A stretch of 64,000 nucleotides of DNA from Alphaproteobacteria bacterium (GTDB lineage: Bacteria; Pseudomonadota; Alphaproteobacteria; MPNO01). The stretch covers positions 3,055,546-3,119,545 of the forward strand of contig OY763326.1 of assembly GCA_963667285.1 (NCBI GenBank), read 5' to 3'. The notes beneath the pieces are model-generated. The model was not told the origin of the DNA, did no database searches, and saw only the letters and a program-made list of their open reading frames with translations. Below, in pieces: positions 12,368-59,807 of the stretch (position 1 is its first letter; each line of letters starts with the position of its first letter). The position numbers and the translations under genes were made by a program.

Positions 12368-12393
12368 GGCTCGCACGGTAACGTCGGCACGCC

Positions 12394-12415
12394 GGTCCCG
12401 GCCATTGCCGGGACC
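12394..12415. terminator. GC-rich hairpin GGTCCCGGCcattgCCGGGACC between convergent genes
   Basis: A perfect 9-bp stem read from the sequence; there is no T tract. Confidence 0.35.
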
Positions 12416-12486
12416 GCCTTCGAGGGCTTCGCCGGCCGCGGCGCTCCGCGTGGTGGTCGCTCGAAAGGGATGCCCGGAGCGGGGCC

Positions 12487-24996: not shown

Positions 24997-26499
24997 TCAG
25001 GACGCCGCGAACATGCCGTGCAGCGCCATGGGCAGCGGGTAGGGGAGAATGCCCTGCCACAGCGGCCCGTCGGCGATGCGGCCGGCCTCGAACAGGTTGA
25101 GCCCGGCGGTCTGCCGGCGGGTGTCGATATAGGGTCCGATCAGCCAGCCCTCGCCTTCGTCCGGGCCGCGGGCGACGAAGACATGCTCCTCCGGGATCTG
25201 GTGCCGCGGATAGGTCCAGGCGTCCACCGCGCCCGATTCCGGATCGAGACGGGCCGCCGCGCGCAGCGGCCAGCCGGCCGCGGCGCCGTCGCCGGTGAGC
25301 GTGAACAGCCTGCGGTGCCGCCGCCCCGTGTAGCGCTCGTCGATGCGCGGAAACTCGGCGACGCCCGGCGCCCCGTCCTCGATCGCGGCCCTGCCGTCCG
25401 GATGCAGCACGGCGACCCGGTACCGGGGATGGTCCGACGGGAAGTCCAGGGCGCCCCGCATCACGGCGCGGAAATCCCCCGTCACGAAGCCGGGGTCGGG
25501 CGCCTGGCACAGATCCAGCCGAATCGTGCCGTCCGGCTCTTCCCAGCCATTGCCGTGGTGGAAGTGGAAACCGGGCGGCAGCTCATGGCGCCGGACCGGT
25601 TTCAGCGTGTTCTTGTCGACGACGACGGCTCGGGTGCCGAGCCCGGGCTGCCAGGAATGGGCGTCGAGGAACGTGGCGTGGCCCGACGCCCCGTCGATCA
25701 CGAACGGGGTCAGCAGCACGACCAGATGCCGGGCCGTGACGACGAAATCATGCGCCATGCCCAGCGGCCCGAAATCGGGAAGCAGGGCGGCCTCGACCCG
25801 GCGCCCGCCGCGGTCGATGCGGTAGACCAGCAAGACGGGGCGTGGCCGGGTCGCGAAGCCGATGTTCCACAGCGTCCCGTCGGGCTCGACCTTGGGGTGG
25901 GCGGAGAACGGCACGCCGGCGAGGTCCGGGCGCCAGGCCACGAATTCCCCGGCGGCGAGCGTGTCGGGATCGACCGCGAGCGCCGAGCCGCCCTCCCACA
26001 GGGCCATCAGCCGCCCGGCATGGGCGAGCATGGCGGTGTTGGCGACGTTCATGTCGTCCGGGCCGCGCAGCGCGGCCGGGCCCGGGGTTCCGAACCCCGG
26101 CAGGATGCGCTTGCCGGCACGGGTCTCGCGGCGCCGCTTGGGGGTGTCCAGGATGCGCGCGCGGTGGGTCGCCATGCCGTCCTCGAAGGCGAAGGCCTGG
26201 ACCATGCCGTCGCCGTCGAACCAGTGCGTGTAGCGCCGGCCGAAACGCTCGTGCTCGGCCGGGCCGTTGCGCCACAACACGCCGGCGAGGCCGGCGGGAA
26301 GCCGGCCGCTCACCGTCTCGAGCGGCGCGGCCAGGCTCTCCGCCCGCGCGGTCGCGAAGGCGATCAGCCGCGGGTCGCGGGCGATCGCCGCGGCGAAATC
26401 CTCCCGGGGGCCGGCGGCGGCGCCCACGCCCACCGCCATCAGCGCCGGCAGCCCGGCGAGCGCGCGCAGCGCCGCGCGGCGCGGCAGGTCGGCCTTCAT
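24997..26499 (-). CDS. Carotenoid oxygenase family (CCD / lignostilbene dioxygenase-like), Tat signal
   Basis: The N-terminus MKADLPRRAALRALAGLPALMAVGVGAAAG contains the twin-arginine motif RR. Carotenoid-cleavage-family sequence runs the full length. Confidence 0.85.
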   Translation of the reverse strand: MKADLPRRAALRALAGLPALMAVGVGAAAGPREDFAAAIARDPRLIAFATARAESLAAPLETVSGRLPAGLAGVLWRNGPAEHERFGRRYTHWFDGDGMVQAFAFEDGMATHRARILDTPKRRRETRAGKRILPGFGTPGPAALRGPDDMNVANTAMLAHAGRLMALWEGGSALAVDPDTLAAGEFVAWRPDLAGVPFSAHPKVEPDGTLWNIGFATRPRPVLLVYRIDRGGRRVEAALLPDFGPLGMAHDFVVTARHLVVLLTPFVIDGASGHATFLDAHSWQPGLGTRAVVVDKNTLKPVRRHELPPGFHFHHGNGWEEPDGTIRLDLCQAPDPGFVTGDFRAVMRGALDFPSDHPRYRVAVLHPDGRAAIEDGAPGVAEFPRIDERYTGRRHRRLFTLTGDGAAAGWPLRAAARLDPESGAVDAWTYPRHQIPEEHVFVARGPDEGEGWLIGPYIDTRRQTAGLNLFEAGRIADGPLWQGILPYPLPMALHGMFAAS

Positions 26500-27934: not shown

Positions 27935-28927
27935 TCGGAGCGGTACGAGTTCTGCAAGGACACGGATTTCGTCGTCGACAACCTCACCGGCGTCGAGACG
28001 CTGGAATATTCGCTCGATTCGGGCACCGAAGGCGGCATCACCGAACCCGCCTATCTGCGCCAGGTCGAGGCGTTCGCCGAATGGTTCCGCAAACAGCCCG
28101 AGGTGTCCCACGTCCAGGCCTTTCCCGACTTCATGAAGCGCCTGAACAAGAACCTGCACGGCGACGACCCGGATTTCTACCGGGTGCCCGACGACCCGGA
28201 CCTGTCCGCGCAATACCTGCTGCTCTACGAGCTGTCGCTGCCCTTCGGCAGGGATCTGAACAACCGGATCGATATCGGCAAGGCGGCGACCCGCATGACG
28301 GTCGTGATGCGGAGCCTCACCTCCCAGGCGCAGCGCGAGCTGGACGCGCGCGCCCAGGCGTGACTGCGGGCCAACGCTCCCGGTCTCGCGGCCGAGGCCT
28401 CGGGCGTCACCATCGTCTTCGCCCATCATTCCCAGCGCAACATCGAGAGCATGCCGACCGGCACGATCGTCGCGATGGCGCTCATTTCGCTGATCCTGGT
28501 CTTCGTGTTCCGGAGCCTGCGGGTCGGCCCGCTGAGCCTGGTGCCGAATTTCATCCCCGCCGCGATGAGCCTCGGCCTCTGGGGCTTTATGGTCGGCCGC
28601 GTGGGCCTCGCCGGTTCGGTGATGACCGCCATCGCGTTCGGGATCGTGGTCGACGACACGATCCATTTCCTGACCAAGTACCTCAAGGCGAGGCGCGAAG
28701 GCCGCGACGCCCCCGAGGCGGTGCGCTCCGCCTTCCGCGCCGTCGGCCACGCCCTGTGGACCACCACCGCCGTGCTCGCGCTCGGCTTCCTGGTGTTCGC
28801 CTCGTCCGGTTTCGAGGTCAGCTGGGCGCTCGGCCTCCTGGTCTCGCTCACGATCGTCTTCGCGCTGCTCGCGGATTTCCTGCTCCTGCCGCCCTTGTTG
28901 ATGGCTCTCGATCGGAGGAAGTCGTGA
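27935..28927 (+). pseudogene. RND-superfamily exporter (MMPL/HpnN-like), C-terminal ~330 aa only, with in-frame TGA
   Basis: The frame is continuous from 27791 to 28927 except for a TGA at 28361..28363 in the context QA-W-LRANAP, a likely TGG->TGA change. The C-terminal transmembrane bundle ends ...LLPPLLMALDRRKS. The N-terminal ~450 aa are absent. Confidence 0.65.
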
Positions 28928-29361
28928 TTCTCGCCCGTTCGACCCGGTCGGGCTCCTTCATGGGCAGCGCGTTTTCCTACGAGAATCTCGGCGCGCCGGA
29001 GGTGGAGAAATACAAGTACCGCCACCTGAAGGACGAAGCCTGCGGCGCGCTCGCCTGTTCGGTGGTGGAGACCGTGCCGGTCGAGAAGGGGCCGGGCTAC
29101 ACCAGGCAGATCGTCTGGCGCGACAAGGACGAGCTCCGGGTCTGGAAGATCGCCCATTTCGACCGCAAGAACGCGCATCTCAAGACGCTCGCGCTGGGCG
29201 AGTGCCGGCGCCATCCGGACCGCTACTGGCGCGCCTCCGAGATGACGATGGAGAACCATCTGACGGGCAAGAGCACGATCATGCGCTGGTCCGACTTCGC
29301 GTTCCGCGCCAGGCTGTCGGACCGCGACTTCAGCCAGTCCAGCCTGAAACGCGCGCGCTGA
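28924..29361 (+). pseudogene. LolA-like outer-membrane lipoprotein-sorting family protein, C-terminal half only
   Basis: The fragment ...GSAFSYENLGAPEVEKYKY... matches the C-terminal part of LolA-like partners of RND exporters. There is no signal peptide or N-terminal half. It starts immediately at the RND stop. Confidence 0.5.
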
Positions 29362-35290: not shown

Positions 35291-36775
35291 TCAGGTCGGG
35301 AGCCGGGTCGCCTGGGCACGCCGGTATATCGCTTCGAGAGCGGGGGCGAGCCGGCGGGCTCCGGCCTCCATCGCCGGCACGCAATCCCGCAGATAGCGTT
35401 CGCCCGCTTCGCGGATCTCGTCGCGCAGCGCGTCTTCGTCCACCGTCAGGATCTTGCGGTCGAGCATGACAACCCGGCCGTCCACGATCGAGGTCTTCAC
35501 CGCCTCCGACGTCGCCGAGAAGGCGAGCTGGCGGATCGGGTCGACCAGCGGGACGAAGCCCCAATGATCGCGGTCGAGCAGGATCAGGTCGGCCCGCATG
35601 CCGGGCTCGATCCTTCCCGTCTCGTCGGCCATCAGCCCCGTCCGGGCTCCCGCCGAGGTCGCCATGTCGAACACTTCGTCGGCGGAGACCCAGGACGCGT
35701 GGTCCGGATTGCCCGGTTTGTGGATCAGGCTCGCCGCCCTGATCGCCTCCACGAGATCGGCGGTGTCGCTGGTCGCCAGGCCGTCGGTGCCGAGCGCCAC
35801 GTCGATCCCGGCGTCCAGCAGCTTGCGCACAGGACAGGTGCCGCTGCCGAGCTTCATGTTGGACAGCGGGTTGTGGACCGCCGAGCAGCCGTGCGCGGAG
35901 AGCCGCGCGATGTCGTCCTCGGTGAGCCAGATCGCATGGACCAGCGTGCTGCGCGGTCCGAGAAGCCCCATGCTTTCCATGAAGGCCACCGCGGTCATGC
36001 CCCAGGCCTGTTGGGCGTGGATCGCCTGCAGCCTGGTCTCCAGCGTGTGGCAGTGGATCGGAATGTGGCGCTCTTCCGACAGCGCGGCGATCCGGCGCAG
36101 GAGGTCGGGCGTGCAGCGCTGCGGCCCGCAGGGGGCCAGCACGATGCGGATCCGGCCGTCGTGCCCGTGCCAGCGCTCGAACTGGCGCTCGAACAGGGCG
36201 GTCTGCGCATCTGCATCGGCGCCGCCCATGGCCGCGAGCTCGTGGTGGATCGCCTCCGGTATCAGCTCGTCCGCCCACGGCAGGCACGCCCGCAAAGGCT
36301 GGTCCCACATGTCCACCGTCACCCAGGCCCGGAGGCCCGCATCCGCGTAAGCCCGGATCGCCGCGTCCATCGCGTCCGGCGTGGCCGGCGGATGCACATA
36401 GTCGTCCTGGACGGTCGTCACGCCGGCGCGGATCGATTCGATGGCCGCCAGCATGGTTCGCAGGTAATAGTCGCGCTCCGTCAGGATCGGAAAGCCGAAA
36501 GGCGGGTAACTCTCGCCGAGCCAGATTTCGAGCGGCAGGTTGTCGTAGGCGCCCTGCTGGAACCCCTCGTTCGAGTGGAGATGGGCGTTCACCAGCCCCG
36601 GCATGACGATCCCGTTCGACGCGTCGACGACGGTTCCGTCGTACTCCCGCCCCTTGCCCGGTCCGATGGCGGAGATATGCGCGCCCTCGACCACGATGTC
36701 CGCGGTCTCGTAGCGGCGCGCCCCGGCGGCGCCGCGGACGACCAGGCCGTCGTTGACGATCAGCGTCCCGGCCAT
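35291..36775 (-). CDS. Amidohydrolase (SsnA / 8-oxoguanine deaminase / chlorohydrolase subfamily)
   Basis: The metal-binding motif is PGLVNAHLHS. At 494 aa it is in the TRZ/ATZ-like family. Confidence 0.8.
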   Translation of the reverse strand: MAGTLIVNDGLVVRGAAGARRYETADIVVEGAHISAIGPGKGREYDGTVVDASNGIVMPGLVNAHLHSNEGFQQGAYDNLPLEIWLGESYPPFGFPILTERDYYLRTMLAAIESIRAGVTTVQDDYVHPPATPDAMDAAIRAYADAGLRAWVTVDMWDQPLRACLPWADELIPEAIHHELAAMGGADADAQTALFERQFERWHGHDGRIRIVLAPCGPQRCTPDLLRRIAALSEERHIPIHCHTLETRLQAIHAQQAWGMTAVAFMESMGLLGPRSTLVHAIWLTEDDIARLSAHGCSAVHNPLSNMKLGSGTCPVRKLLDAGIDVALGTDGLATSDTADLVEAIRAASLIHKPGNPDHASWVSADEVFDMATSAGARTGLMADETGRIEPGMRADLILLDRDHWGFVPLVDPIRQLAFSATSEAVKTSIVDGRVVMLDRKILTVDEDALRDEIREAGERYLRDCVPAMEAGARRLAPALEAIYRRAQATRLPT

Positions 36776-36791
36776 TCGCGTCGCCCGCCGG

Positions 36792-39098
36792 CTACCCCCG
36801 CAAGGCCCGCAGCACCCGTTCCGGCGTCATCGGCAGGCGCCTGAGCCGGGTTCCCGTGGCATGGGCGACGGCGTTGGAGATCGCCGGCGCGATGCCCACG
36901 ATCGGCGGCTCGCCGACGCCCTTGGCGCCGAACGGGCCGTCCTCGTCCGGGTCCTCGACCAGCATGGTGTCGATCTCCGGCGGCACGTCCATGATGCCCG
37001 GAATCTTGTAATCCATCAAAGACGGGTTCGCGAGCCGCCCCGAATCCCACACCATCTCCTCGCACAGCGCGTAGCCCAGCCCCTGGACGATGCCGCCCTG
37101 GATCTGGCCCTCGACCGCCGTCGGGTTGATCGCCTTGCCGATATCGTGCGCCGACCAGACTTTCAGCGGCAGGATCCGTCCGGTCGCTTCGTCGACCTCC
37201 ACCTCGACCGCCTGGGCGGCGAAGATCCAGGCGCCGATCTTGCCGAACGGAAAGCCCTTCAGGTAGCCGCGCTTGGGGTCGAAATCCGGCCCGTCATAGG
37301 CCAGCGAGTTGGTGCCGATGACCGGCCCGCCGGCGACCCAGTGCGAGAAGCCGGAGATGTCGCGGAACCCGATCTCGGCCTCCGGCACGCCCTTGATGCC
37401 GATGCGCCCGCCGTCGCGGAGTTCCAGATCCTCCTCGGCGCACTCCATCATGACCGCCGCGCGCTGCTTGAGCTGGGCCACCGCGTCCTCGGAGGCGGCG
37501 ACCACCGCGCGGCCGGCCATGTAGGTGACACGGCTCGCCGTGGTGCCCCAGTTATAGGGCGAGCCGTCGGTATCCGGCGTGGCCACGCTCACCTGGTCGA
37601 TTTCGAGGCCGAGCGCGGCGGCGCAGATCTGGACCAGCACCGTGTCCGAGCCCTGGCCGTTGTCGACCGCGCCGGTATTCAGCACCGCGGTGCCGTCCTC
37701 GAGGATGCGGACGATCGCGCCCGAGGTCAGCACGCCCGAGATATGCGGGATGCAGGCGAGCCCGATTCCGCGCTTGCGGCCCGACCCGTTGGACACGGCC
37801 TTGCGCTTCCCGTCCCAGCCGCAAGCCGCGCGGACCCGCTCCAGGCATTCCGACAGCCCGGACTTGTTGAGCGCCACGCCGATCATCCACTCCTCGCCCG
37901 GGCGCACGACGTTCTTGAGCCGCAGGTCGATCGGGTCCATGCCGAGCCGGTCGGCGATCTCGTCGATCTGGGTCTCGCCGGCGATGGCGACCTGCGGGCC
38001 GCCGAAGCCGCGGAACGCGCCCGAGCGCAGCTTGTTGGTGTAGACCGGGCGCGATTCGATCGAGACGTTCTCGATGCGGTAGGGCCCGCGGCAGAACAGC
38101 GCCGCGATCCCGGCCACGCCCGGGCTGTCGTCGGCATAGGCGCCGGCGTCGAGGACGATCCGGACCTCGCGCGCGAGCAGCGTGCCGTCGGCCGCCGCGC
38201 CGGTCTTCATCCACACCTTGCCGGGGTGGCGGGAGCGGATCATCTCGAAATCCTGCTCGCGGCTCAGCGTCACCTTGACCGGCCGGCCGGTGGCGCGGGC
38301 GAGCGCGGCGGCGGCGGGCTGCACGGTCTGCTCCATTTTGCCGCCGAAGGCGCCGCCCACCTGCGGGGTGACGCAGCGCAGCTTGGACATCGGTAGCCCG
38401 AGCGAATCGGCGACGAAGGACTGGACGTGGAACACCGACTGGTTGGACGACCAGATGGTGATCTTGCCGTTGGAATCGATCTCGGCCAGCGCCGAGCACG
38501 GCTCCATGTAGGTGTGGCACTGCGCCTGGGTCTCGTAGCTTCCCTCGACGATCGCCGCGCAGCTTTCCCAGGCCGAGTCCACGTCGCCCTCGACGATCTC
38601 GATGATCGCCATCGCGTTGCGGTCGCTGTCGGCCTCGAAGACCTTGATGTAGTCCGCGAAGCCCTCGTGCAGCGCGGGCGCATCCGCGGCGGTCGCCGCG
38701 TCGGTGTCGAACACCGCCGGCAGCTCCTCGTAGGAGATGTCGATCAGCCGCGCGGCCTGCCTGGCGGTCTCCAGATCGACCGCCGCCACCGCGGCCACCG
38801 GCTCGCCCATATAGCGCACCTTGCCGACCGCGAGCGCGGTCTCGTCCTTGACGAAGGGGCCGATCTTGTGGTCGCCGATGTCCGCGCCGGTGACCACCGC
38901 CGCGACGCCGTCGAGCGCGAGCGCCGCGGAGACATCGTATCCCGTGATCCGCGCATGGGCGTGGGGGCTCGGCACGATCACGCCCACCAGCATGTCTGGG
39001 CGCGACATGTCGTCGGCGTAGACCGCCCTGCCGGTGATCTTGTCGCGCGTCTCCAGCCGCGGGATGCCCTGCCCGACGGGGCTCACATAGTCGTTCAT
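36792..39098 (-). CDS. Xanthine dehydrogenase family molybdopterin-binding (large) subunit
   Basis: The ATG (MNDYVSP) follows a GGGAGG SD and overlaps the upstream stop (ATGA). Motifs QVGGAFGGK and the XDH-type loop AFRGFGGPQ are present. Confidence 0.85.
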   Translation of the reverse strand: MNDYVSPVGQGIPRLETRDKITGRAVYADDMSRPDMLVGVIVPSPHAHARITGYDVSAALALDGVAAVVTGADIGDHKIGPFVKDETALAVGKVRYMGEPVAAVAAVDLETARQAARLIDISYEELPAVFDTDAATAADAPALHEGFADYIKVFEADSDRNAMAIIEIVEGDVDSAWESCAAIVEGSYETQAQCHTYMEPCSALAEIDSNGKITIWSSNQSVFHVQSFVADSLGLPMSKLRCVTPQVGGAFGGKMEQTVQPAAAALARATGRPVKVTLSREQDFEMIRSRHPGKVWMKTGAAADGTLLAREVRIVLDAGAYADDSPGVAGIAALFCRGPYRIENVSIESRPVYTNKLRSGAFRGFGGPQVAIAGETQIDEIADRLGMDPIDLRLKNVVRPGEEWMIGVALNKSGLSECLERVRAACGWDGKRKAVSNGSGRKRGIGLACIPHISGVLTSGAIVRILEDGTAVLNTGAVDNGQGSDTVLVQICAAALGLEIDQVSVATPDTDGSPYNWGTTASRVTYMAGRAVVAASEDAVAQLKQRAAVMMECAEEDLELRDGGRIGIKGVPEAEIGFRDISGFSHWVAGGPVIGTNSLAYDGPDFDPKRGYLKGFPFGKIGAWIFAAQAVEVEVDEATGRILPLKVWSAHDIGKAINPTAVEGQIQGGIVQGLGYALCEEMVWDSGRLANPSLMDYKIPGIMDVPPEIDTMLVEDPDEDGPFGAKGVGEPPIVGIAPAISNAVAHATGTRLRRLPMTPERVLRALRG

Positions 39099-39571
39099 GA
39101 CGCGCCTCCCGCGCTCGCCGATCTGACCGCCTCGACCACCTTCACATAGCCCGAACAGCGGCAGAGATTGCCCGACAGCCCGTCGCGGATCTCGGCGTCG
39201 CTCGGGCTCGGGTTGTCCGCCAGCAATGCGGTCGCCGCCACCGCCATGCCCGGCATGCAGAAGCCGCACTGCACCGCGCCATGGTCGAGCAGCGCCTGTT
39301 GCACCGGCGACAGCGCGCCGCCCTCGGCGAGACCCTCCACGGTGACGATCTCGCGTCCGGCGGCGTCGGCGGCAAGCGTCAGGCAGCCGCGCATCACGGC
39401 GCCGTCGATCATCACCGAACAGGCACCGCAGACCCCCTGGTTGCAGCCCCGCTTGGAGCCGGTGAGCGAAATCCGCTCGCGCAATACCTGCAGGAGCGTG
39501 TGCCAGGGCTGGACGAACAGCCGGTGCGTCCGTCCGTTGACCTCGAGCGAGATCGGGATGGCTTCGCTCAT
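39095..39571 (-). CDS. (2Fe-2S)-binding small subunit of Mo hydroxylase
   Basis: Carries CNQGVCGACSV and CGFCMPG cysteine clusters. Confidence 0.9.
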   Translation of the reverse strand: MSEAIPISLEVNGRTHRLFVQPWHTLLQVLRERISLTGSKRGCNQGVCGACSVMIDGAVMRGCLTLAADAAGREIVTVEGLAEGGALSPVQQALLDHGAVQCGFCMPGMAVAATALLADNPSPSDAEIRDGLSGNLCRCSGYVKVVEAVRSASAGGAS

Positions 39572-40422
39572 CGCGCCGCTCCCTTGGCCGCCGCCGCGCG
39601 GAGCGCGCGGCCGAGCAGCGGTTCGACCAGCATCATGCGGTACTCGCCCGAACCCCGGACGTCGTCCACCGGGTCGCAGGCGTCCCGGAGGATCGCCGCG
39701 GCCGCGGCGACATCCTCGTCCGCCAGCGCGGTTCCCGCGAGCCGCGCCTCCGCATCCTCCGCCCGGACCGGGATCGGCCCGCAACTGCCGAGCGCGACGC
39801 GGACGTAGCGGCAAATTCCGGCCTCCATCGCCACCGCCGCGGCAACCGAGACCGTTGCGTAATCGCCTTCGACACGGGCGAATTTCTCGTAGGCCCCGAA
39901 CCCGCCCGCGGGGGAAGGCGGCAGGGTGACGGCGGTGATCAGCTCGCCCGGCTGCAATGCGGTTTCCAGATAGTCGACGAAGAAATCCTGCGCCGGGACG
40001 GCCCGCGCCCCGTCCGGCCCCCGCAGCTCGACCGAAGCGTCCAGCGCCACCAGCGCACCCGGATAGTCGGCCTGCGGATCGCCGTGGCCGATCGACCCGC
40101 CGATGGTCCCCATGTTGCGGATCGCCGGATGGCCGATCGCCCGCGCGGTCTCGGAAATCAGCGCATGCGCGCCGTCGAGACCGGCCGCATCGGCGACCTC
40201 GCGGTGGGTCGTCATCGCGCCGATGCGGAGCCCGCCGCCGGCGTCGGCCGCGATGCCCCGGAGCGCCGCGATATGGCGCAGGCTGACGAGCGCCGAGGGC
40301 ATCACCAGGTCGGCGTTCATCATCGCGACCAGCGTCGCGCCGCCCGCGAGACAGCGCGCATCCTCGTCCGCGGCCAGCAGCGAAACCGCCTCGTCGACCG
40401 TCGACGGGCCGTGAAACTCCAT
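39568..40422 (-). CDS. FAD-binding (medium) subunit of Mo hydroxylase
   Basis: The start is MEFHGPSTVDE. GGAT appears in LAGGATLV. SD GGGGAGG precedes the ATG. A GTG at 40431 is possible but sits 3 nt from the SD. Confidence 0.85.
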   Translation of the reverse strand: MEFHGPSTVDEAVSLLAADEDARCLAGGATLVAMMNADLVMPSALVSLRHIAALRGIAADAGGGLRIGAMTTHREVADAAGLDGAHALISETARAIGHPAIRNMGTIGGSIGHGDPQADYPGALVALDASVELRGPDGARAVPAQDFFVDYLETALQPGELITAVTLPPSPAGGFGAYEKFARVEGDYATVSVAAAVAMEAGICRYVRVALGSCGPIPVRAEDAEARLAGTALADEDVAAAAAILRDACDPVDDVRGSGEYRMMLVEPLLGRALRAAAAKGAAR

Positions 40423-40550
40423 CCCATGCACCTCCCCGAGCGTTGGCCGGCAGCGAGTATGTCCGATGGCGGGAGGACCGGCAAACCCTGTAGCCGGCGG
40501 CGCCGGGGCGGTATTCTCCGCCCGCTCGAAGCCGGTTGGGGAGAGGCGAA

Positions 40551-51357: not shown

Positions 51358-52602
51358 ATGAACAGGACCGACGCGAACAGGCTCGCCTTCGAGAGTCTCG
51401 GCGCGGCCGAGCCCGTGCTGGTCGACATCCGCCCGGCGATCGACGTGCTGCCCGGCATGACGCCCGCCACCGTGCTCACCTCGGGCCCGCCGATGCCGTG
51501 GGAGCGCTATGCCGGCGGCCAGCGCGACGCGGTGATCGGCGGCGCCCTGTTCGAGGGGCTGGCATCCGACGCCGAGGAGGCGGCGGGAAAGCTGGAGCGG
51601 GGCGAGATCGCGGTCGACGGCTGCCACGACTACGGCGCGGTGGGCTCGCTCGCCGGCATCTACACCGCCTCGATGCCGGTCTTCGTCGTCGAGAACCGGA
51701 CGGCGGGCATCAACGGCTTCTGCAACATGTACGAGGGGACCGACCCGAGGCGCCTCAACTACGGCGTCTACGACGAGGGGGTGCGGGAGCGGCTGCTGTT
51801 CGTCCAGGAGGTGATCGCCCCGGTCCTCGCCGAGGCGGTGCGGGCGGCGGGCGGCATTCCGCTCAAGCCGATCATGCGGCGCGCGCTGCACATGGGCGAC
51901 GAGCTGCACAGCCGCAACACGGCGGCCTCGCTCCTGTTCACCCGCGAGCTGTTCCCTCACCTTCTCCGCCTCGATCCCGCCATGCGCGACGCGGTCGAAC
52001 GCACCGTGGCCGCGCTCACCGAGGACCACTACTTCTTCCTCCGGCTGTCGATGGCCGCCGCCAAGTGCACCGCCGACGCCGCCGCCGGGATCGAGGGTTC
52101 CAGCGTGGTCACCGCGATGGCGTTCAACTGCAACAACTTCGCCATCCGGGTCTCGGGGCTGGGCGGGACCTGGTTCACCGGCCCGCACGCCTCGGTCGAC
52201 GCCAGGCTGTTCGAGGGCCACACGGAGGACGAGATCGCCTGGATGGGCGGCGAAAGCACCATCGCCGAGACCATCGGCCTCGGCGGTTTCGCGCAGGCCG
52301 CCGCCTTCCCGTTGCAGGACTACCAGGGCGGTTCCGCGCCGGCGATGGTCGAGCGCAACCTCGCGCTCTACGCCATTGCGGTGGGCGAGAACCCGGACTA
52401 TCGGATTCCCTATCTCGGCTATCGCGGCACGCCCACCGGCATCGACATCCACCGCGTGGTCGAGACCGGAATCCTCCCGGTTATGGATATCGGCATCGCC
52501 GGGCGCGACGGCGGGCAAATCGGCGCCGGCATCGTAAGCGCCCCCGTCGAATGCTTCGAAGCCGCGCTCGCGGCCTACCGGGCGCGCTACGGCGGCGCGT
52601 GA
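51358..52602 (+). CDS. Conserved hypothetical protein, possibly DUF1116 (YlbE/AllG-like)
   Basis: A 414-aa soluble protein. The family call is from memory of YlbE-like proteins only; no motif was verified. Confidence 0.4.
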   Translation: MNRTDANRLAFESLGAAEPVLVDIRPAIDVLPGMTPATVLTSGPPMPWERYAGGQRDAVIGGALFEGLASDAEEAAGKLERGEIAVDGCHDYGAVGSLAGIYTASMPVFVVENRTAGINGFCNMYEGTDPRRLNYGVYDEGVRERLLFVQEVIAPVLAEAVRAAGGIPLKPIMRRALHMGDELHSRNTAASLLFTRELFPHLLRLDPAMRDAVERTVAALTEDHYFFLRLSMAAAKCTADAAAGIEGSSVVTAMAFNCNNFAIRVSGLGGTWFTGPHASVDARLFEGHTEDEIAWMGGESTIAETIGLGGFAQAAAFPLQDYQGGSAPAMVERNLALYAIAVGENPDYRIPYLGYRGTPTGIDIHRVVETGILPVMDIGIAGRDGGQIGAGIVSAPVECFEAALAAYRARYGGA

Positions 52603-52606
52603 GGGG

Positions 52607-52702
52607 TGGCGGAAAAGAGTGGGAGTCGAACCCACCAGGGACGTCTCACGCCCCTCACCGGTTTTGAAGACCGGGCGCGCCACCGGGCCGCGATTCTTTT
52701 CC
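52607..52702 (-). tRNA. selC: tRNA-Sec (selenocysteine tRNA, anticodon UCA)
   Basis: The reverse complement folds as tRNA-Sec. It has an 8-bp acceptor stem (GGAAAAGA/UCUUUUCC), discriminator G and CCA. The anticodon loop CUUCAAA gives anticodon UCA. There is a long variable arm and a 5-bp T stem with loop UUCGACU. Overall it closely resembles E. coli selC (GGUG, UUCAAA, GGUUCGACUCC blocks). Confidence 0.85.
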
Positions 52703-52772
52703 GTGGCGGCGAGAGTGCGGCCAAGCCGGCGATCCCGTCAACCGCGGATCGTCCTTATCACGGGAGACCGCG

Positions 52773-53642
52773 ATGACCAGTGTGCTTTACGAACGCGACG
52801 GGCGGATCGCACGGATCACGCTCAACCGCCCCGAGGTGCTCAACGCCATCGACGACGAGATGCCGGGCGCGCTCTCCGACGCCGTCGCCCGGGCCGATGC
52901 CGATCCGGCGGTCCACGTCATGCTGCTCTCGGGCGCCGGGCGGGCGTTCTGTTCCGGCTACGATCTCAAGCGCTACGCGGGCGGGGAGAGGGGCGGCGGA
53001 GACGGCGGCTATGTCGGGCAGGAGATGCCCTGGGACCCGATCCAGGACTACGCCTTCATGTGGGCGAACACCCAGCATTTCATGGCGCTCTGGCGGGCGC
53101 TCAAGCCGGTGGTCTGCAAGGTGCACGGCCTGGCGCTCGCCGGCGGCTCCGACATCGCGCTGTGCGCCGACCTGACGCTGATCGCCGAGGACGCCGAGAT
53201 CGGCTACATGCCGGCGCGGGTCTGGGGCTGCCCGACGACCGCCATGTGGGTCTACCGCCTGGGACCGGAGAAGGCGAAGAGGCTGCTGTTCACCGGCGAC
53301 CGGATCGCGGGCTCGGAGGCGGCCGGGATGGGACTGGTGCTGAAGGCCGTGCCGGCCGACGCGCTCGACGACGAGGTGGAGACGCTCGCCCGGCGCATGG
53401 CGGGCGTGCCGGTCAACCAGCTGGCCATGCAGAAGCTGGTCATCAACCAGGCGATCGAGGCGACCGGCCTGGTCAACACCCAGCGGCTCGCCACGATCTT
53501 CGACGGCATCACCCGCCATTCGCCCGAAGGCCTGAACTTCGGGAAGCGGGCCGAAGAGGTCGGCTGGAAGCAGGCCGTGCGGGAACGCGACGACGGGAGC
53601 TGGGACTGGACCCTGGACAGGCCGATCGAGGGTTCGGATTGA
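52773..53642 (+). CDS. Enoyl-CoA hydratase/isomerase (crotonase) family
   Basis: SD GGGAGA precedes the ATG. Carries the crotonase motifs HVMLLSGAGRAFCSGYD and ...HGLALAGGSDIAL... Confidence 0.85.
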   Translation: MTSVLYERDGRIARITLNRPEVLNAIDDEMPGALSDAVARADADPAVHVMLLSGAGRAFCSGYDLKRYAGGERGGGDGGYVGQEMPWDPIQDYAFMWANTQHFMALWRALKPVVCKVHGLALAGGSDIALCADLTLIAEDAEIGYMPARVWGCPTTAMWVYRLGPEKAKRLLFTGDRIAGSEAAGMGLVLKAVPADALDDEVETLARRMAGVPVNQLAMQKLVINQAIEATGLVNTQRLATIFDGITRHSPEGLNFGKRAEEVGWKQAVRERDDGSWDWTLDRPIEGSD

Positions 53643-53680
53643 TCCGAGGATCCTGTCGTTCCGACCGGACCCGATAGCCT

Positions 53681-55609
53681 TCAGGTTTCCGGCCCCGAAT
53701 CCCCGCCGAACACCTCCTTGGCCGGCCGCAGGATCTTGCGCTCGTTGCCGGACCGCCGGGTGAATCGCACCTTGTCGAAATACTCCAGCACCTCGATGGC
53801 GAGGTTGCGCCCGATCCCGGCCGCGTCGCGGAACGATGCCGCGGTGACGGTGCCGTCCGCCGAGCCGTCCGCCGCCGCCTCCAGGCTTTCCGCCAGGCCG
53901 CGCAGGGCGCCAGGCAGGTAGTACCGGTTCCTGGTCGCGCCCACCACGAGGCCGAGCCTGGCGGCGCGGCCCAGGAAAGTCGCGATCCGCCGCGCATCCA
54001 TGCCGGTCCGCTCGGCGATCTCGCTCACCAGCGGCGGGCGGGTGCCGCCCTCCTCCAGCAGGGATTCCAGGTCGCGCCACAGCGTCTCGTCGGCGGCCGA
54101 CATGCGCGGCCGGTGGTCCGGCAGCCGGACGCGCGCGCCTTCGCGGACCAGCACCCCCTCGCGGTCCAGCTCGGGTATGGCGCGCTTCAGGAGATCGACC
54201 GGGACCCGCTTCTCCATCGCCGAGCGCAGATTGGCCTCGGTCGGACCCACCGCGTCGTCGTGGCTCGCATGCCAGACGGCGAGCGCCTCGCCGACGCTCG
54301 CCCTGAGCCGCTCCCAGCGCGGTCCGGAAAGCGCGAGCTCGCCGAGCCGCACCATCTCCGCCGCCGCGAAGATTTTTTCGCGCGCGGCTTCGGTGAGGTT
54401 GCGGGCGCGCGCGAATTTCGCGAGATCCACGGCGTTCTCCGCGGAGTCTATGGCGGCCTGGAGCGCGGCCGAGGCATCGGGCTCCGCCACCGCCTTCAGA
54501 TAGGCGAGCCGCGCCGGGCGGGCGCGACCGCGCGCCGGTGGCAGGATGTCGACCACCGATCCGCCGCCGATGGTGCGGGTCGCCGAGGTGTCGCGCAGCA
54601 CGAAGCGGTCGCCGTGCATCGCGCCGATCGGCCGGTCGAGCACGAGCTGGGCGAGCCCGGACTCGCCCGGCGCCAGCGACCGCGCTTCCAGCAAAGCGAG
54701 CCGGCCGGTCACGTCGGAAGCCGCGAGGTGGACATGGACCGGCGTCCAATGCGCCACCGGCCGGGTCTCGTCGGCGAGGATGCGCACGCTCGCGTCGATG
54801 CGGCGGGCGGGCAGGTGGGCGTCTTCTTCCACCACCCAGTCGCCGCGGGCCACCCCGTCCTTGCCGAGCGACTGGCCGACGATGTTGAGCGCCAGCCGCT
54901 CGCCCGCCCGGCCGCGCTCCGACTTGCGGTCCTGGGCGTGGATGCCGCGGACGCGGACCGGGATTCGCCTGGGCGACAGGACGAGCTGGTCGCCGACCGC
55001 GACGGTGCCCGAGAACGCGGTTCCGGTGACCACCAGCCCGGCTCCCACCACGGTGAAGGCCCGGTCCACGGCGAGGCGGAAATGCCCGTCCGCCGCACGC
55101 CGGCGGATGTCGCCCGACCTGGCTTCGAGATGCGCCTTCAGCGCCGCCACCCCGTCCCCCGCGACCGAGGAGACCGGGAAGCAGGGCGCCCCGGCGAGCC
55201 GGGTCTCGTCGAGATAGAGCTCGACCTCCTCGGCGACCTCCGCGACCCGTTCCTCGTCCACGCGGTCGGTCTTGGTGATCGCCACCGCGCCTTCGGCGAC
55301 GCCGAGCAGCTCGAGGATCGCCAGATGTTCGCGGGTCTGCGGCATCACCCCGTCATCGGCGGCGACGACCAGCAGCGCGAAGTCGATCGCCGCCACGCCG
55401 CACAGCATGTTGCGGATGAAGCGCTCGTGCCCCGGCACGTCGACGAACCCCAGCACCCCGCCGCCCGCCAGCGGCATATAGGCGAAGCCGAGATCGATCG
55501 TCAGGTTGCGCTGCTTCTCCTCCGGCAGGCGGTCGGTGTCGATCCCGGTCAGCGCGCGCACCAGCGACGTCTTGCCGTGGTCGACATGGCCCGCCGTCGC
55601 GACGATCAT
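53681..55609 (-). CDS. selB: Selenocysteine-specific translation elongation factor SelB
   Basis: Starts [22 protein letters not shown]...[18 protein letters not shown]. At 643 aa it includes the C-terminal winged-helix SECIS-binding extension. Confidence 0.9.
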
Positions 55610-57033
55610 TTGCCGGGCGCGTCCCCGATCGCGAGACCGGCGAGCTGCGCGCGGAAGCCGTCGGCGTCTTCGAGGCAGCGCAGGTCGAGCAGGAAAGCGC
55701 CGTCGGCGATGCGCCCGATCACCGGCACCGGAAGCGCGGCAAAGGCCTCGGCCAGCCGCTCGAGGTCGCCGCCGCGCCGGGAATTCGGCCTGATCGCGAT
55801 CGCCCGGCTCGGGATGCTGGCGACCGGAAGCGCGCCCGAGCCGATCTGGCTCAGGCAGGGCAGGGTCTCGACCGCGAACCCGTCTCCCACGCTCGCCCGG
55901 ACCGCCGGGGCGATCTCTTCGCACAGTGCGGCGACCGCGTCCCCGCTCCGGGTCAGGTGGCGCAGCGTCGGCAGGCGTTCCGCGATGCGGTCGGGATCGC
56001 GGTAGAGCGCGAGCGTGGCCGCGAGCGCCGCCATCGTCATCTTGTCCACCCGCAGCGCGCGCTTGAGCGGGTTGCGCTTGATCTCCGCGATCAGATCGCG
56101 CCGGCCGACGATCAGCCCGGCCTGCGGGCCGCCGAGCAGCTTGTCGCCGCTGAAGGTGACGAGGTCGGCGCCGGCCGCGAGCGTCTCGGCGACCGTGGTC
56201 TCGTGGGCGAGGCCGTAGCGCTCGAGCCGCACCAGCGCGCCGCTGCCGAGGTCCACCGCGAAGGGCACGCCGCGCTCGGCGCAGAGCGCCGCGAGCCGGT
56301 TCTCGGGCGCCTCCGCGGCAAATCCCTGGATCGCGTAGTTGCTGGCGTGCACCTTCATCACCAGCGCGGTTTCCTCGCCGATTGCTGCCTCGAAATCGCT
56401 CAGATGGGTGCGGTTGGTGGTGCCGACCTCGCGCAGGACGCAGCCCGCCGCCGCCATCACCTCCGGCATGCGGAACGAGCCGCCGATCTCGACGAGTTCG
56501 CCACGCGAGACCGGCACCTCGCGCCCCCCGGCCAGGGTCGAGAGCACGAGCAGCACCGCGGCGGCGTTGTTGTTCACTGCCGTCGCCGCCTCGGCGCCGG
56601 TCAGCCGGCAGAGCAGCGCCTCGATATGGGAATCCCGGTCGCCGCGCGCCGCCCGGCCGACATCGTATTCCAGCGTCGACGGTCCGCCCGCCACCGCGAC
56701 CGCCGCCTCGATGGCCTCCGCCGCCAGGCTCGCCCGTCCGAGATTGGTGTGCAGCACGGTGCCGGTCAGGTTGAAGACGGGCCGGAGCGAGGGCGCGGCT
56801 TCCGCCTCCGCCCGCGCTGCAATCCGCGCGGCGAGAGCCTCTGTCCCGGCGACTCCGGGGTCGGTCCCGACACCCGTCAATATGGCGCGCCGGAGCTCGT
56901 CCAGAACCCCGCGCGCCGCTTCGACGACGACGGCGCGGCCATGGCGTTCGGCCGCCTCCCGCAGGGGCGCCGAGTCGAGCATCCGGTCGACCGCAGGGAT
57001 CGAAGACAGCAGCGCCGAGGGGTCTTTCGGCAT
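55606..57033 (-). CDS. selA: L-seryl-tRNA(Sec) selenium transferase SelA
   Basis: The PLP-lysine context is [13 protein letters not shown]. The ATG ([13 protein letters not shown]) is preferred; GTG at 57051 is the alternative. The stop overlaps the selB start (ATGA). Confidence 0.9.
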
Positions 57034-57070
57034 GGCCGGCGACCTTACCACAGTGCGGATGGGGCCACGG

Positions 57071-58591
57071 TCAGCGCAGCCGGATCAGCCGTTCGATGCC
57101 GATGTCCCGCGCGTGGGTGTCGAGCAGCATGGCGCGGAACGGGGCGTGGTGCCGGGCGATGAAGTCCTCGCGCCCGCCCATGCGTTCGGCGAAGCGGGTG
57201 GCGATCCCGGCGGCCTCGGCGAGAATCGCGTCTTCGTCGATTGTCAGCAACGCGCCGTCGCGGACCACCTGCCGGCCGTCGATCCAGACATGCTCGGTGC
57301 CGGCGCCCTGCTCGTAGAACAGGATATGCCGCCACGGATCGCCCATCGGCATGTGCCAGTGGCTGCGCGTGTCGACGACCAGGATGTCGGCCCGCGCGCC
57401 GGGGGCGAGGGTGCCGATCCGGCCCGGCTCGCCCATCGCCCGGGCGCCGCCCTGCATGGCGAGCGCCAGCATGCCGGCCGCGTCGATCCACTTGTCGGGG
57501 TCGGGTTCGGTCAGCCGCGACAGATAGGCGGCCACGCGGACCGGTTCGAGCAGCGCCGCGGGGCTGCAATTCGTGCCGTCCGAGCCGAAGGCGACCGGAA
57601 TGCCGCTCTCCACCAGGCGCAGCATCGGGCAGACGCCGGAGCCCAGCATCATGTTGGACGGCGCCGGGTGGATGACGGTGAGCCCGGCCTCCCGGGCGGC
57701 GGCGATGTCGTCCTCGGCCGACCAGACGAAATGGGCGAACGAGCTCTTGTCGTCGACGATCCCGAGCCGCGCGAGCCTGGCCACGAAGCCCTCGCCGGGG
57801 GCGCGCATCGCGGCCTGGGTCTTGGCTTCCAGCATGTGGGTGTGCAGCCCGAGCCCGGTGCGCGTCTTGGCGTCCGCCGTCATTTCGATCAGCGCGTCGC
57901 TGCAGCGCTGCGGCCCGTCCACCCCGAGCAGCAGGCCGAGGCGGCCGTTCGCGGTATCGAGGGTTTCGAGCGCCGCCTCGACGGTCGCGAAATAGGCCTC
58001 GGCGTCCGGCGGGGTCATGCGTTCGTAGAACGCCCGCAGCTCGTCCGGCAGGCGCGAGGCGTCGATCGGCACGGTATCGAGATAGGGGAGGTCGGCGAAC
58101 ATCGGGGCGATGCGGGCGCGCAGCCCGGCCTCGCGATACCCCGCCGCGACCGCTTCCAGCCCCTCTCCGGTGGTTTGCGGGCGTTCGGAATAGTGGTCGA
58201 TCACCGAGGTGACGCCCGATTTCAGCAGCGTGATGCAGTCGACCTGTGCGGACACGAAGATCTCGCGCGGGCTCCGGTCGCTGCCGCCGGCAATCGCGCG
58301 GATCATGTAGAGGTCGAGCGGCACGGCATCCACGGTGCCCTTGAGCAGCGCCGAGTAGGAATGCGAATGGGCGTTGATCAGCCCCGGCATGACGATACGG
58401 CCATCGGCCTGGACGGCGGCGACCTCCGCGCCCGGCGGCGGCGTATGACCGCCCGCCTCGCAGACCGCGCGGATTTCGCCCCCCGCGAACCAAACCTCGC
58501 CGTTCTCGATCGTCCGGCTCGAGCCGTCGCAGGGCAGAACCGTTCCACCGCGGATAACGACGATGTTGCCGTCGGGCGTCGCTTCGGGCAT
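57071..58591 (-). CDS. Amidohydrolase (cytosine deaminase / chlorohydrolase-like, TRZ/ATZ family)
   Basis: The metal-binding motif is PGLINAHSHS. It ends 19 bp upstream of selA on the same strand. Confidence 0.85.
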   Translation of the reverse strand: MPEATPDGNIVVIRGGTVLPCDGSSRTIENGEVWFAGGEIRAVCEAGGHTPPPGAEVAAVQADGRIVMPGLINAHSHSYSALLKGTVDAVPLDLYMIRAIAGGSDRSPREIFVSAQVDCITLLKSGVTSVIDHYSERPQTTGEGLEAVAAGYREAGLRARIAPMFADLPYLDTVPIDASRLPDELRAFYERMTPPDAEAYFATVEAALETLDTANGRLGLLLGVDGPQRCSDALIEMTADAKTRTGLGLHTHMLEAKTQAAMRAPGEGFVARLARLGIVDDKSSFAHFVWSAEDDIAAAREAGLTVIHPAPSNMMLGSGVCPMLRLVESGIPVAFGSDGTNCSPAALLEPVRVAAYLSRLTEPDPDKWIDAAGMLALAMQGGARAMGEPGRIGTLAPGARADILVVDTRSHWHMPMGDPWRHILFYEQGAGTEHVWIDGRQVVRDGALLTIDEDAILAEAAGIATRFAERMGGREDFIARHHAPFRAMLLDTHARDIGIERLIRLR

Positions 58592-58637: not shown

Positions 58638-59807
58638 ATGGAACGCAAACCGACAACCGACGCGATCAAGGACATCCTCGGAGACCTGATCGCCACCCGG
58701 TCCACCGACCCGCCGGGCGACACGACGGCGATCTGCGCCTATGCGGCCGAGCGTCTGTCCGCCGCCGGATATGCGGTCGAGACCCTGTCCCGGGTGGAAG
58801 GCATCGCCAACACGGTCGGGCGCATGGGCGACGGCAGACCGTCGCTGGTCTTCAACGCCCATGCCGACACCGTCGATGTCGGCAATCGCGAGGACTGGCT
58901 CACCGACCCCTTCGTCGCCACCGAGATCGACGGCAATCTGCACGGCCTCGGCGCCGGCAACAGCAAGGCCGCGATGGCGGTCCAGCTCTGGCTCGCCGAG
59001 CGCATCGCCGAGGCCGGCGGGCCGCGCAGCGGCGAGGTCGTGTTCACCTTCGTCGGCGACGAGGAGCGGCTCGGGCCCAACGGGCTCGCCTTCCTGCGCG
59101 AGACGGGGGCGGTCCGACCCGACTACCTGGTCCTCGGCGCGCAGACCCAGCTCCAGACCATCACCGAGGAGCGCGGCGTGTTCTGGTCCCGGCTCACCGC
59201 GCGCGGACGCGCGGCCCATGCCGGCGACCCCGCGGCCGGCGACAACGCGATCCTCCGCATGATGCGGCTGATCGAGACCCTGCGACGCGAGCTTGTCCCG
59301 AGGCTCGCGGTGCGCCGTCACCGCAGGCTCAAATCGACCATGAATATCGGCACCATTCGCGGCGGCCACAACACCAACGCGGTGCCGAGCGAATGCGTCA
59401 TCGAGATCGACCGGCGCACGCTGCCGGAAGAAAAGATGGACGATGCCTTCGCCGAGATGGAGGCAGCGCTCGCCACGTCGGGCGAGCCGGAGGTGAGCTA
59501 CGCGTTCGAATTCCTGACCGGCACCAACGGCTTCACTTCGACCGGCGATACACCCTGCATCGCGGCATTCCACCGGGCGATCGGCCGGGTGACCGGCGAA
59601 CCGCTGCGCGAGTTCGTCGCCGTGGGCGCGAGCGACGGACGCTATTTCACCGAGGACGGGATCGAGATCCTGACCTTCGGCCCCGGCGCGGCGGATCAGG
59701 GGCACGCGGCGAACGAATGGGTGCCGATCGCGCAGCTGGCGCCCGCCGCGGAGATCCAGCTCGCCGTGGTCGAGGAGCTTCTCGGGCTCGGTCAGTCCGG
59801 CCGGTAG
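58638..59807 (+). CDS. M20 family metallopeptidase (ArgE/DapE/YgeY-like)
   Basis: Carries ...NAHADTV... and ...GAGNSKAAMA... The ATG is MERKPTT. Confidence 0.85.
   Translation: MERKPTTDAIKDILGDLIATRSTDPPGDTTAICAYAAERLSAAGYAVETLSRVEGIANTVGRMGDGRPSLVFNAHADTVDVGNREDWLTDPFVATEIDGNLHGLGAGNSKAAMAVQLWLAERIAEAGGPRSGEVVFTFVGDEERLGPNGLAFLRETGAVRPDYLVLGAQTQLQTITEERGVFWSRLTARGRAAHAGDPAAGDNAILRMMRLIETLRRELVPRLAVRRHRRLKSTMNIGTIRGGHNTNAVPSECVIEIDRRTLPEEKMDDAFAEMEAALATSGEPEVSYAFEFLTGTNGFTSTGDTPCIAAFHRAIGRVTGEPLREFVAVGASDGRYFTEDGIEILTFGPGAADQGHAANEWVPIAQLAPAAEIQLAVVEELLGLGQSGR

Follow-up and report, generated by a model that had tools for sequence, protein, structure and literature searches.

The window, as we call the whole 64-kb stretch of DNA analysed here, carries selA, selB and a tRNA-Sec gene (selC), which together very probably form a standard selenocysteine (Sec) insertion cassette whose client selenoproteins are encoded at other genomic sites. 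All three genes lie on the minus strand (Table 1), with selA and selB overlapping by 4 nt (ATGA) and the sole tRNA-Sec found in the window by Rfam and ARAGORN located 978 nt 3′ of the selB stop. Through the overlap, selA and selB would be translationally coupled, and selC, which follows on that strand after about 1 kb, would be read from its own promoter. SelB would then bring the charged tRNA to those UGA codons that precede a SECIS hairpin in the mRNAs of selenoproteins encoded elsewhere in the genome. The most probable target would be an FdhA-type formate dehydrogenase—Sec mainly serves FDH in Alpha-, Beta- and Gammaproteobacteria (PMC8124441, PMC1794560)—and further targets may exist in a lineage that is marine or associated with sponges. 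Sponge-symbiont bins, including a Defluviicoccus bin of 69.5% GC, are enriched in SelA and SelB (PMC5649159); this remark on enrichment was all that the literature returned on selenoproteins of Defluviicoccus or sponge symbionts.

Table 1 Features of the sel locus, its flanks and the one gene with an internal TGA
Feature	Position	Strand	Evidence
MMPL pseudogene, 5′-truncated, TGA at 28361	27938..28927	+	In-frame TGA scans, Pfam
AllG/DUF1116-like gene, convergent with tRNA-Sec	51358..52602	+	PF06545, 253 bits
selC, tRNA-Sec, anticodon UCA, 96 nt, CCA encoded	52607..52702	-	ARAGORN, Rfam RF01852, 8/5 fold, covariation
Promoter-like element of tRNA-Sec: TTGACG, 18 nt, CACTCT	52712..52741	-	Conservation in 3 loci
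Crotonase/enoyl-CoA hydratase gene, between selB and tRNA-Sec promoter-like element	52773..53642	+	PF00378; NF006128, 405.8 bits
selB, Sec-specific elongation factor, 642 aa	53681..55609	-	TIGR00475, Pfam domains, GTPase motifs
selA, selenocysteine synthase, 475 aa	55606..57033	-	TIGR00474, PF03841, PF12390, PLP-lysine motif
TRZ/ATZ-type amidohydrolase, upstream of selA, outside the Sec machinery	57071..58591	-	PF01979
M20 hydrolase of the ArgE/DapE type, divergent from amidohydrolase and selA	58638..59807	+	TIGR01910, 223.9 bits (cut-off 217.6)

Identity and upkeep of the cassette

Both proteins score well above the cut-offs of their equivalog models: SelA reaches 570.7 bits (cut-off 267.9) for TIGR00474, L-seryl-tRNA(Sec) selenium transferase, and SelB 466.3 bits (cut-off 242.25) for TIGR00475. 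SelA matches PF03841 as well as the N-terminal tRNA-binding domain PF12390, retains an intact PLP-lysine motif (FSGDKLLGG) and has a database homologue of the same 475 aa at about 100% identity; its start is most likely ATG 57033 (MPKDP...) rather than the alternative GTG 57051. SelB combines GTP_EFTU, Beta-barrel_SelB and SelB winged-helix domains (PF09107, 53.7 bits; PF25461 also matched), and the GTPase motifs G1, G3 (DVPGH) and G4 (TKTD) are all present in the window copy.

ARAGORN called tRNA-SeC with anticodon tca, and the Rfam score, 76.7 bits, exceeds the gathering score of 47, identifying the tRNA as Sec and as neither Ser nor Leu, the alternative that the earlier note on this DNA had named. 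The predicted fold, in which the MFE and centroid structures coincide, comprises an 8-bp acceptor, a 5-bp T stem and an 8-bp long extra arm, and the 3′ end carries an encoded G73-CCA (GCCA). Among 10 homologues compared, 10 of 32 pairs covary, with compensatory changes present, and the copy in the related locus L002 is identical to that of the window. The bacterial architecture and UCA anticodon ascribed to this tRNA are hence upheld by ARAGORN, RF01852 and fold alike, and the three translational components recognised in the earlier note prove real and intact by equivalog models, motifs and Rfam.

Nine nucleotides separate the mature tRNA 5′ end from a promoter-like element, of which TTGACGG and CCGCACTCT are unchanged in the window and in the related loci L002 and L003, despite differing upstream sequence (ECH 5′ region versus selB 3′ end). 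A simple sigma-70 scan made no call on this element; its conservation nonetheless suggests that it is the promoter of tRNA-Sec. No second copy of the tRNA-Sec 3′ end, as an island attachment site would show, was found in the window, and a plasmid database search gave matches of 72–76% at best, with no sign of a known plasmid.

Comparison with three relatives (L001–L003) yielded dN/dS values of 0.23 for selA and 0.15–0.19 for selB, over dS of up to 0.7; neighbouring genes gave 0.06–0.21 in the same comparison. The rate of evolution of selA and selB is somewhat above that of the adjoining genes, and within the block these two are the least conserved, as might be expected of a relic whose selenoprotein genes were lost or turned into Cys forms and which is itself heading for decay. 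The 64-kb window and about 230 kb of related flanks, which contain no selenoprotein, selD or fdh, would also fit such an orphan. We nevertheless consider this very improbable. Against it stand the dN/dS values themselves, the lack of any stop or frameshift in the four fully compared copies (window and L001–L003), the intact motifs of the window copy, and intact-length selA and selB calls in about nine further relatives. The tRNA-Sec is either identical or compensated in homologues, and upkeep across a clade spanning 64–100% SelA identity would be unexpected for a useless trait. Judged by its intact motifs, dN/dS range, compensated tRNA and conserved promoter-like element, the cassette appears to be functional rather than decaying.

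Selenoprotein, selD and fdh genes in the window

Annotation covered all 64 kb and gave 54 gene calls of about 60 aa or more, all of which entered the Pfam run except two ABC-transporter ATPase genes (22118..22822 and 22819..23592); several alternative ORFs were added. No AIRS/SelD domain was found among the called genes of the window, and tblastn with E. coli SelD returned no match in the whole window or the clade loci. Related loci likewise gave no AIRS domain. Formate dehydrogenase and molybdopterin-oxidoreductase domains were absent from the window and from every related locus examined, no FdnG-like match was found in the window, L002, L003 or L085–L095, and the window contains no yqeB/yqeC-type gene.

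Sec codons were sought with in-frame TGA scans. As a first, GC3-threshold version overlooked genuine Sec codons of FdnG in L053, L066, L070 and L035, it was replaced by a codon-usage best-frame scan, which recovers FdnG Sec positive controls at 70% GC and is blind to UGA within 12 codons of gene ends. Within the window it flagged only a TGA at 28361, three junctions between successive genes that share a frame, and two weak antisense artefacts. The junctions, at 22120 (LivF/LivH), 44598 (FAH/cupin) and 48616 (TcuA/2-hydroxyacid dehydrogenase), are ordinary stop-then-next-gene arrangements and not Sec codons. The TGA at 28361 is the only one inside a coding frame of the window and lies in a pseudogene retaining just the C-terminal part of an MMPL domain, with the N-terminal half missing; it aligns to an invariant Trp of full-length MMPL homologues, and the hairpin 3′ of it is not significant (z = -0.85), which together rule it out as a Sec codon.

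The earlier note had raised the possibility of a hidden TGA-containing gene nearby, and the best-frame scan, which had recognised genuine FdnG Sec codons, detects no such gene in the 64 kb. The blind zone would leave room for a UGA in the first or last 12 or so codons of a gene, and the failure of the GC3-based version illustrates that composition scans can miss real cases. Even so, a selenoprotein gene concealed in this way, or through a reading of TGA 28361 as Sec, is extremely unlikely: beyond the scan output listed above, no coding-like extension crosses the start or stop of any gene in the window, and the region from 44 to 64 kb is tightly packed with genes. With no credible in-frame Sec codon or UGA-plus-SECIS gene anywhere in the 64 kb, the absence of selenoprotein, selD and fdh genes reported for the window in the earlier note is confirmed by Pfam, tblastn and TGA scans.

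Gene order in the clade and the catabolic neighbours

Members of a Defluviicoccus-like clade of Alphaproteobacteria, with SelA identities of 64–100%, share the position of the sel cassette, with L002, L003, L086, L087 and L088 having it at the same chromosomal position. Neither fdh nor selD occurs within 10 kb in any of about 13 related loci, including the 10 kb past the right edge of the window, where relatives carry glnS, SDR genes and a TRAP transporter; an fdhA just past the edge, as considered in the earlier note, is therefore not seen in relatives. On the reading we prefer, the cassette would have resided next to the M20 hydrolase, amidohydrolase, hydantoinase-like gene, Rieske oxygenase and glnS since the ancestor of this clade, and its tie to catabolic genes would be inherited gene order, not a functional operon.

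On the selC side, the AllG/DUF1116-like gene ends 4 nt from the tRNA 3′ end. This gap had been given correctly in the earlier note, whose orientation needs correcting: the gene is on the plus strand and converges on the tRNA. AllG adjoins tRNA-Sec in L002 and L003 too, and in L087 and L088 its gene call starts 4 nt after the tRNA. The previous description of the locus was also incomplete in leaving out the crotonase gene between selB and the tRNA. L001, L002 and L088 have this gene, L003 lacks it, and in L087 IS110 takes its place; tRNA-Sec comes directly after selB in many loci, L003 among them.

On the selA side, the amidohydrolase stop lies 37 nt from the selA start, with no terminator-like site between them; the 19 bp stated previously most likely do not hold, because the likely start is ATG 57033 and not GTG 57051. 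This junction is not a conserved operon: in L086 a repeat-rich spacer of 442 nt separates the two genes, in L087 they are parted by a 3.4 kb insertion (Fic and two ORFs), and L089 and L092 have no amidohydrolase, at odds with the suggestion that this gene heads a selAB operon. The most persistent selA neighbour in the clade is the M20 hydrolase, orthologues of which (68–71% identity) adjoin selA in L089, L091 and L092, and the M20-selA adjacency is kept down to 64% SelA identity. A stop in the L003 M20 alignment is just a natural stop that comes earlier.

Could the cassette be functionally coupled to these N-heterocycle catabolic genes, sharing a transcript with the amidohydrolase or regulatory control with the M20 gene, in a pathway that needs a selenoenzyme or selenium handling? 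The short junction would permit this, as would the retention of M20-(amidohydrolase)-selA-selB at 64–68% SelA identity though the outer flanks differ. Broad families are moreover shared with the ‘third selenium trait’ clusters of E. coli (ygeW-ygeY-hyuA-ssnA) and E. faecalis (EF2563-EF2578), namely an M20 hydrolase, hydantoinase-type and TRZ/ATZ-type amidohydrolases and, 15 kb away, an XDH-family Mo hydroxylase; SsnA, YgeY and HyuA, to which the neighbours are related at the level of paralogues, belong to families context-linked to selenium-dependent Mo hydroxylases (PMC2432076). Those clusters, however, go with selD, yqeB, yqeC and a labile Se cofactor instead of with selA, selB and selC (PMC2432076), and selD, yqeB and yqeC are all missing from the window. 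Its proteins also fail the relevant models: the amidohydrolase is below the cut-off of all NCBIfam equivalogs (SsnA TIGR03314, 167.5 versus 455.5; NF005540, 165.3 versus 444), the M20 hydrolase misses those of YgeY (NF009555, 149.3 versus 321; TIGR03526, 117.7 versus 321.5), other families score higher, and the Mo hydroxylase is below the Se-dependent XDH equivalog cut-off. Outside the clade, none of 77 loci has a homologue of the M20 hydrolase or the amidohydrolase beside selA, and within it the amidohydrolase junction breaks as described. The identities of M20, amidohydrolase, SelA and SelB drop in step, as plain vertical inheritance of the block predicts. Taken together, we regard functional coupling as very unlikely. 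It is likewise decidedly unlikely that the fixed position of selABC beside the M20 and amidohydrolase genes throughout this sponge- or marine-associated clade reflects an N-heterocycle pathway or nearby Mo hydroxylase needing selenium, or an unrecognised selenoenzyme encoded elsewhere.

Placement of sel genes relative to their targets

The earlier note had viewed the placement without a selenoprotein neighbour as remarkable. Among 35 selA loci flanked by 8 kb or more on both sides, an FdnG-type gene is near selA in six and selD in four, unlinked selAB being the majority state. In E. coli K-12, likewise, no sel gene accompanies selD or the Sec-FDH gene fdnG, and the machinery therefore acts in trans on remote targets. 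In that species selAB also has a locus apart from that of selC, unlike in the window, where selC is within 1 kb of selB. Separation of selABC from its targets is common, and the locus is ordinary for that reason. From the earlier interpretation, the components and the absences in the window remain; the remarkable placement, the amidohydrolase-headed operon and the hidden TGA gene do not.

The closest described arrangement is the fdoGHI-selABC(D) cluster of Proteobacteria (PMC1794560, PMC8124441), which shares the three genes, their order and strand, the selA/selB coupling and a 96-nt tRNA-Sec downstream of selB with UCA, G73 and encoded CCA. It differs in that the window, and 10 kb in about 13 clade loci, are without fdhA/fdoGHI and selD, that a crotonase gene intervenes between selB and selC, and that catabolic genes and glnS form the flanks. 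The type with selC nested in selB (Mukai 2021, PMC8124441) does not apply, as Rfam and ARAGORN place the one tRNA-Sec of the window outside the selB ORF. Zhang et al. 2006 found fdhA next to selABC in all then-sequenced Sec-decoding Alpha- and Betaproteobacteria (PMC1794560); that the clade departs from this classical layout counts against a standard cassette with distant targets, the explanation we favour.

Alone, the locus is of little importance. In uncultured Alphaproteobacteria, selABC is commonly apart from fdhA and selD, where early cultured genomes suggested otherwise (PMC1794560), and a missing selenoprotein neighbour is therefore no anomaly. Were such a selenium dependence of the catabolic genes true, selenium use would be tied to a symbiont catabolic trait, which would fit the SelA/SelB enrichment in sponge symbionts. 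As the clade is well delimited and represented by several megabase-scale contigs (among them ENA ERZ24894577 ctg522446c, ERZ25084387 ctg36582l and OZ219866.1) and near-complete MAGs, the selenoproteome behind that enrichment (PMC5649159) could be established by scanning whole genomes.

The selenocysteine tRNA and the selA and selB genes

The tRNA that the earlier note had taken for tRNA-Sec proved to be one: besides the ARAGORN call (tRNA-SeC, anticodon tca), the Rfam tRNA-Sec model, whose gathering score is 47, matched it at 76.7 bits—the sole RNA family over threshold in the window—and the predicted fold takes the bacterial 8/5 form (8-bp acceptor, 5-bp T stem, 8-bp extra arm), with G73 and an encoded CCA at the 3' end. 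The sequence is identical to that of L002, a GTDB genome with the same locus, and compensatory changes occur both in a further such genome (L003) and in seven homologues that are more distant; 10 of 32 pairs covary. A promoter-like element, TTGACG-N18-CACTCT, is invariant in the window, L002 and L003 while the DNA further upstream is unrelated among them, suggesting that tRNA-Sec has its own, putative promoter dedicated to selC. Two other ARAGORN calls, a tRNA-Ser(cga) at 22807..22879 and a 96-nt 'tRNA-Met' at 26013..26108, are probably false positives, each lying inside a well-supported opposite-strand coding region and having no Rfam match.

SelA carries the PLP-lysine motif, SelB the G1, G3 and G4 motifs, and the two genes overlap by ATGA. 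While selA, selB and the tRNA are thus real, the gene layout proposed earlier needed amending: it omitted a crotonase gene between selB and tRNA-Sec, the three sel genes all lie on the minus strand, and the AllG/DUF1116 gene converges on the tRNA-Sec 3' end. The ATG at 57033 is most likely the selA start, which widens the supposed 19-bp gap to 37 nt after the amidohydrolase stop.

Coordinates of features in the window
Feature	Position	Strand	Remarks
tRNA-Sec (selC)	52607..52702	-	ARAGORN
TTGACG-N18-CACTCT, promoter-like	52712..52741	-	ends 9 nt 5' of mature tRNA-Sec end
Crotonase gene	52773..53642	+	
selB	53681..55609	-	NCBIfam equivalog 466.3 vs 242.25; Pfam domains including C-terminal winged helix
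selA	55606..57033	-	alternative start 57051; NCBIfam equivalog 570.7 vs 267.9; expected Pfam domains
MMPL transporter pseudogene	27938..28927	+	5'-truncated; C-terminal half
Mo hydroxylase large subunit	36792..39098	-	
Mo hydroxylase 2Fe-2S subunit	39095..39571	-	
Mo hydroxylase FAD subunit	39568..40431	-	
1217-aa ORF	8714..12367	+	Gly/Ala/Thr-rich degenerate repeats; C-terminal region ends ...RAKIAF

Selection and gene order in relatives

In comparisons with L002, L003 and the Defluviicoccus MAG L001, three GTDB genomes in which the locus recurs, dN/dS was 0.23 for selA and 0.15-0.19 for selB (dS up to 0.7) versus 0.06-0.21 for neighbouring genes, and neither sel gene had an internal stop. 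Because these ratios are low and the frames intact, purifying selection acts on the cassette, with only a little more relaxation than on the neighbouring genes. Within the syntenic block, the proteins of selA and selB (53681..57033) are the least conserved: identity to the L002 orthologue is 88% for SelA and 93-98% for most flanking genes. dS is also higher for selA and selB. That the cassette is relic machinery is contradicted by purifying selection and seems highly improbable.

Homologue searches and contig look-ups returned about nine further loci from large contigs of the clade of Defluviicoccus-like alphaproteobacteria. The cassette occupies the same position in three of them (L086, L087 and L088), with Rieske oxygenase, SDR, hydantoinase-like, M20 and amidohydrolase genes on one flank and AllG, VanA-like and TcuA-like genes on the other. 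The AllG stop lies 4 nt from tRNA-Sec in the window, L087 and L088, and AllG also adjoins the tRNA in L002 and L003. The M20 hydrolase adjoins selA down to 64-68% SelA identity (L089, L091, L092); the amidohydrolase is confined to L091 and the window's subclade.

Both junctions of the cassette collect insertions. The amidohydrolase-selA junction contains a 442-nt repeat-rich spacer with palindromic repeats in L086 (3190..3632) and, in L087 (6607..10001), 3.4 kb made up of a Fic gene and two ORFs. Between selB and the tRNA lie the crotonase gene (window, L001, L002, L088), an IS110 transposase (L087, 13383..15544) or no insertion (L003). Since the former junction is split and the amidohydrolase restricted, what was described as an operon headed by this enzyme is simply a chance local arrangement of genes. 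Functional coupling of the cassette to the surrounding catabolic genes could draw on the persistent M20-selA adjacency and on paralogue-level similarity of the neighbours to SsnA, YgeY and HyuA; yet these neighbours fall below family cut-offs, the junctions are broken in relatives and no such selA neighbours occur among the 77 loci from outside the clade, making coupling unlikely.

Search for a selenoprotein, selD and formate dehydrogenase

Codon-position composition yielded 54 gene calls in the window, of which 52—all except the ABC-transporter ATPase genes at 22118..22822 and 22819..23592—were run against Pfam or NCBIfam. Neither a SelD (AIRS) nor a molybdopterin-oxidoreductase (FDH) domain was found among these, and tblastn with E. 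coli SelD, FdnG and FdnH against the whole window DNA gave no match. A first Sec-codon scan, based on a GC3 threshold, flagged 28361, 22120 and 44598 but was insensitive, missing genuine FdnG UGA codons in four fetched loci. A second scan, scoring codon usage either side of each TGA against five other frames, recovered both 70% GC controls. Blind to UGA codons 12 or fewer codons from a gene end, it returned nothing in the window but 28361, two weak antisense artefacts and three junctions between genes in the same frame (22120, 44598, 48616); no gene of the window had coding-like sequence running on past its start or stop codon.

The TGA at 28361 is no Sec codon: it aligns with an invariant Trp of full-length homologues in an MMPL gene missing its N-terminal ~440 residues, the hairpin 3' of it is not significant, and it is a TGG-to-TGA nonsense mutation in a pseudogene. 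Within this region (27938..29361), a LytTR regulator precedes and an N-truncated LolA-like gene follows; homologues have both the MMPL and the LolA-like gene intact, as a pair. The lack of a visible selenoprotein, selD or fdh in the window therefore stands, whereas an unrecognised TGA-containing gene within it, contradicted by the control-validated scan, is the least probable reading of all.

Nor did an fdhA just past the window edge, which the earlier note had envisaged, appear: beyond the right edge, the next 10 kb in relatives hold glnS, SDR genes, a TRAP transporter and others, with no fdh. No SelD or FDH domain was found in the clade loci examined, and Sec-codon scanning, extended to about 230 kb from the clade, gave no convincing candidate. 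A distant clade member (L092, about 20859, plus strand) has an in-frame TGA in a GST-like ORF, with weak coding signal upstream. In L085, a locus on a related contig, a frameshift breaks glnS (10950..12607) in two; misassembly or a pseudogene is the probable explanation, and the gene is intact in L002, L003, L086 and L088.

Elsewhere in the window, 35291..40431 (minus strand) encodes a second TRZ/ATZ amidohydrolase and a molybdenum hydroxylase of XDH/CoxLSM type with three subunits; every specific NCBIfam equivalog, including the Se-dependent XDH model, scored below cut-off there. A 300-nt direct repeat (313..612 and 2013..2312, 95% identical) flanks a 1.4-kb insert of lower GC and is a duplication of the 3' end of a gene for a histidine phosphatase, and REP-like units of ~40 nt (core GTCGTCATTTCGACCGG, at least 6 copies, both orientations) occur among repeats at 633-984 and 2333-2805. 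The 1217-aa ORF has no Pfam or NCBIfam match and looks like an autotransporter-type surface protein.

Placement and probable role of the cassette

Surprise at a cassette without fdh is understandable, since Zhang et al. 2006 (PMC1794560) found fdhA adjoining selABC in every Sec-decoding alpha- or betaproteobacterium available at the time, and fdoGHI-selABC(D) clusters have been described (Mukai 2021, PMC8124441). We sampled 80 selA loci from species-representative genomes. In the 35 flanked by 8 kb or more on either side, an FdnG-type gene lay near selA in only six and selD in only four, and in E. coli K-12 selD and fdnG occupy loci without a nearby sel gene. Unlinked selAB(C) is therefore the common state in current data, and the placement loses the singularity first ascribed to it.

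We consider it very probable that this is an ordinary selA-selB-selC cassette, presumably active, which a distant selD would support in trans and whose targets would be distant UGA/SECIS genes. Its genes, mechanism and dispersed arrangement are all already known; only its clade-wide residence beside the M20 hydrolase and its insertion-prone junctions are mildly new. FdhA would be the most probable target, given that Sec serves mainly FDH in these proteobacterial classes (PMC8124441). Among relatives with a name, a Defluviicoccus MAG is the closest, and because SelA and SelB are reported as enriched in sponge-symbiont bins, one Defluviicoccus bin among them (PMC5649159), the selenoproteome of the clade may possibly extend beyond FDH.
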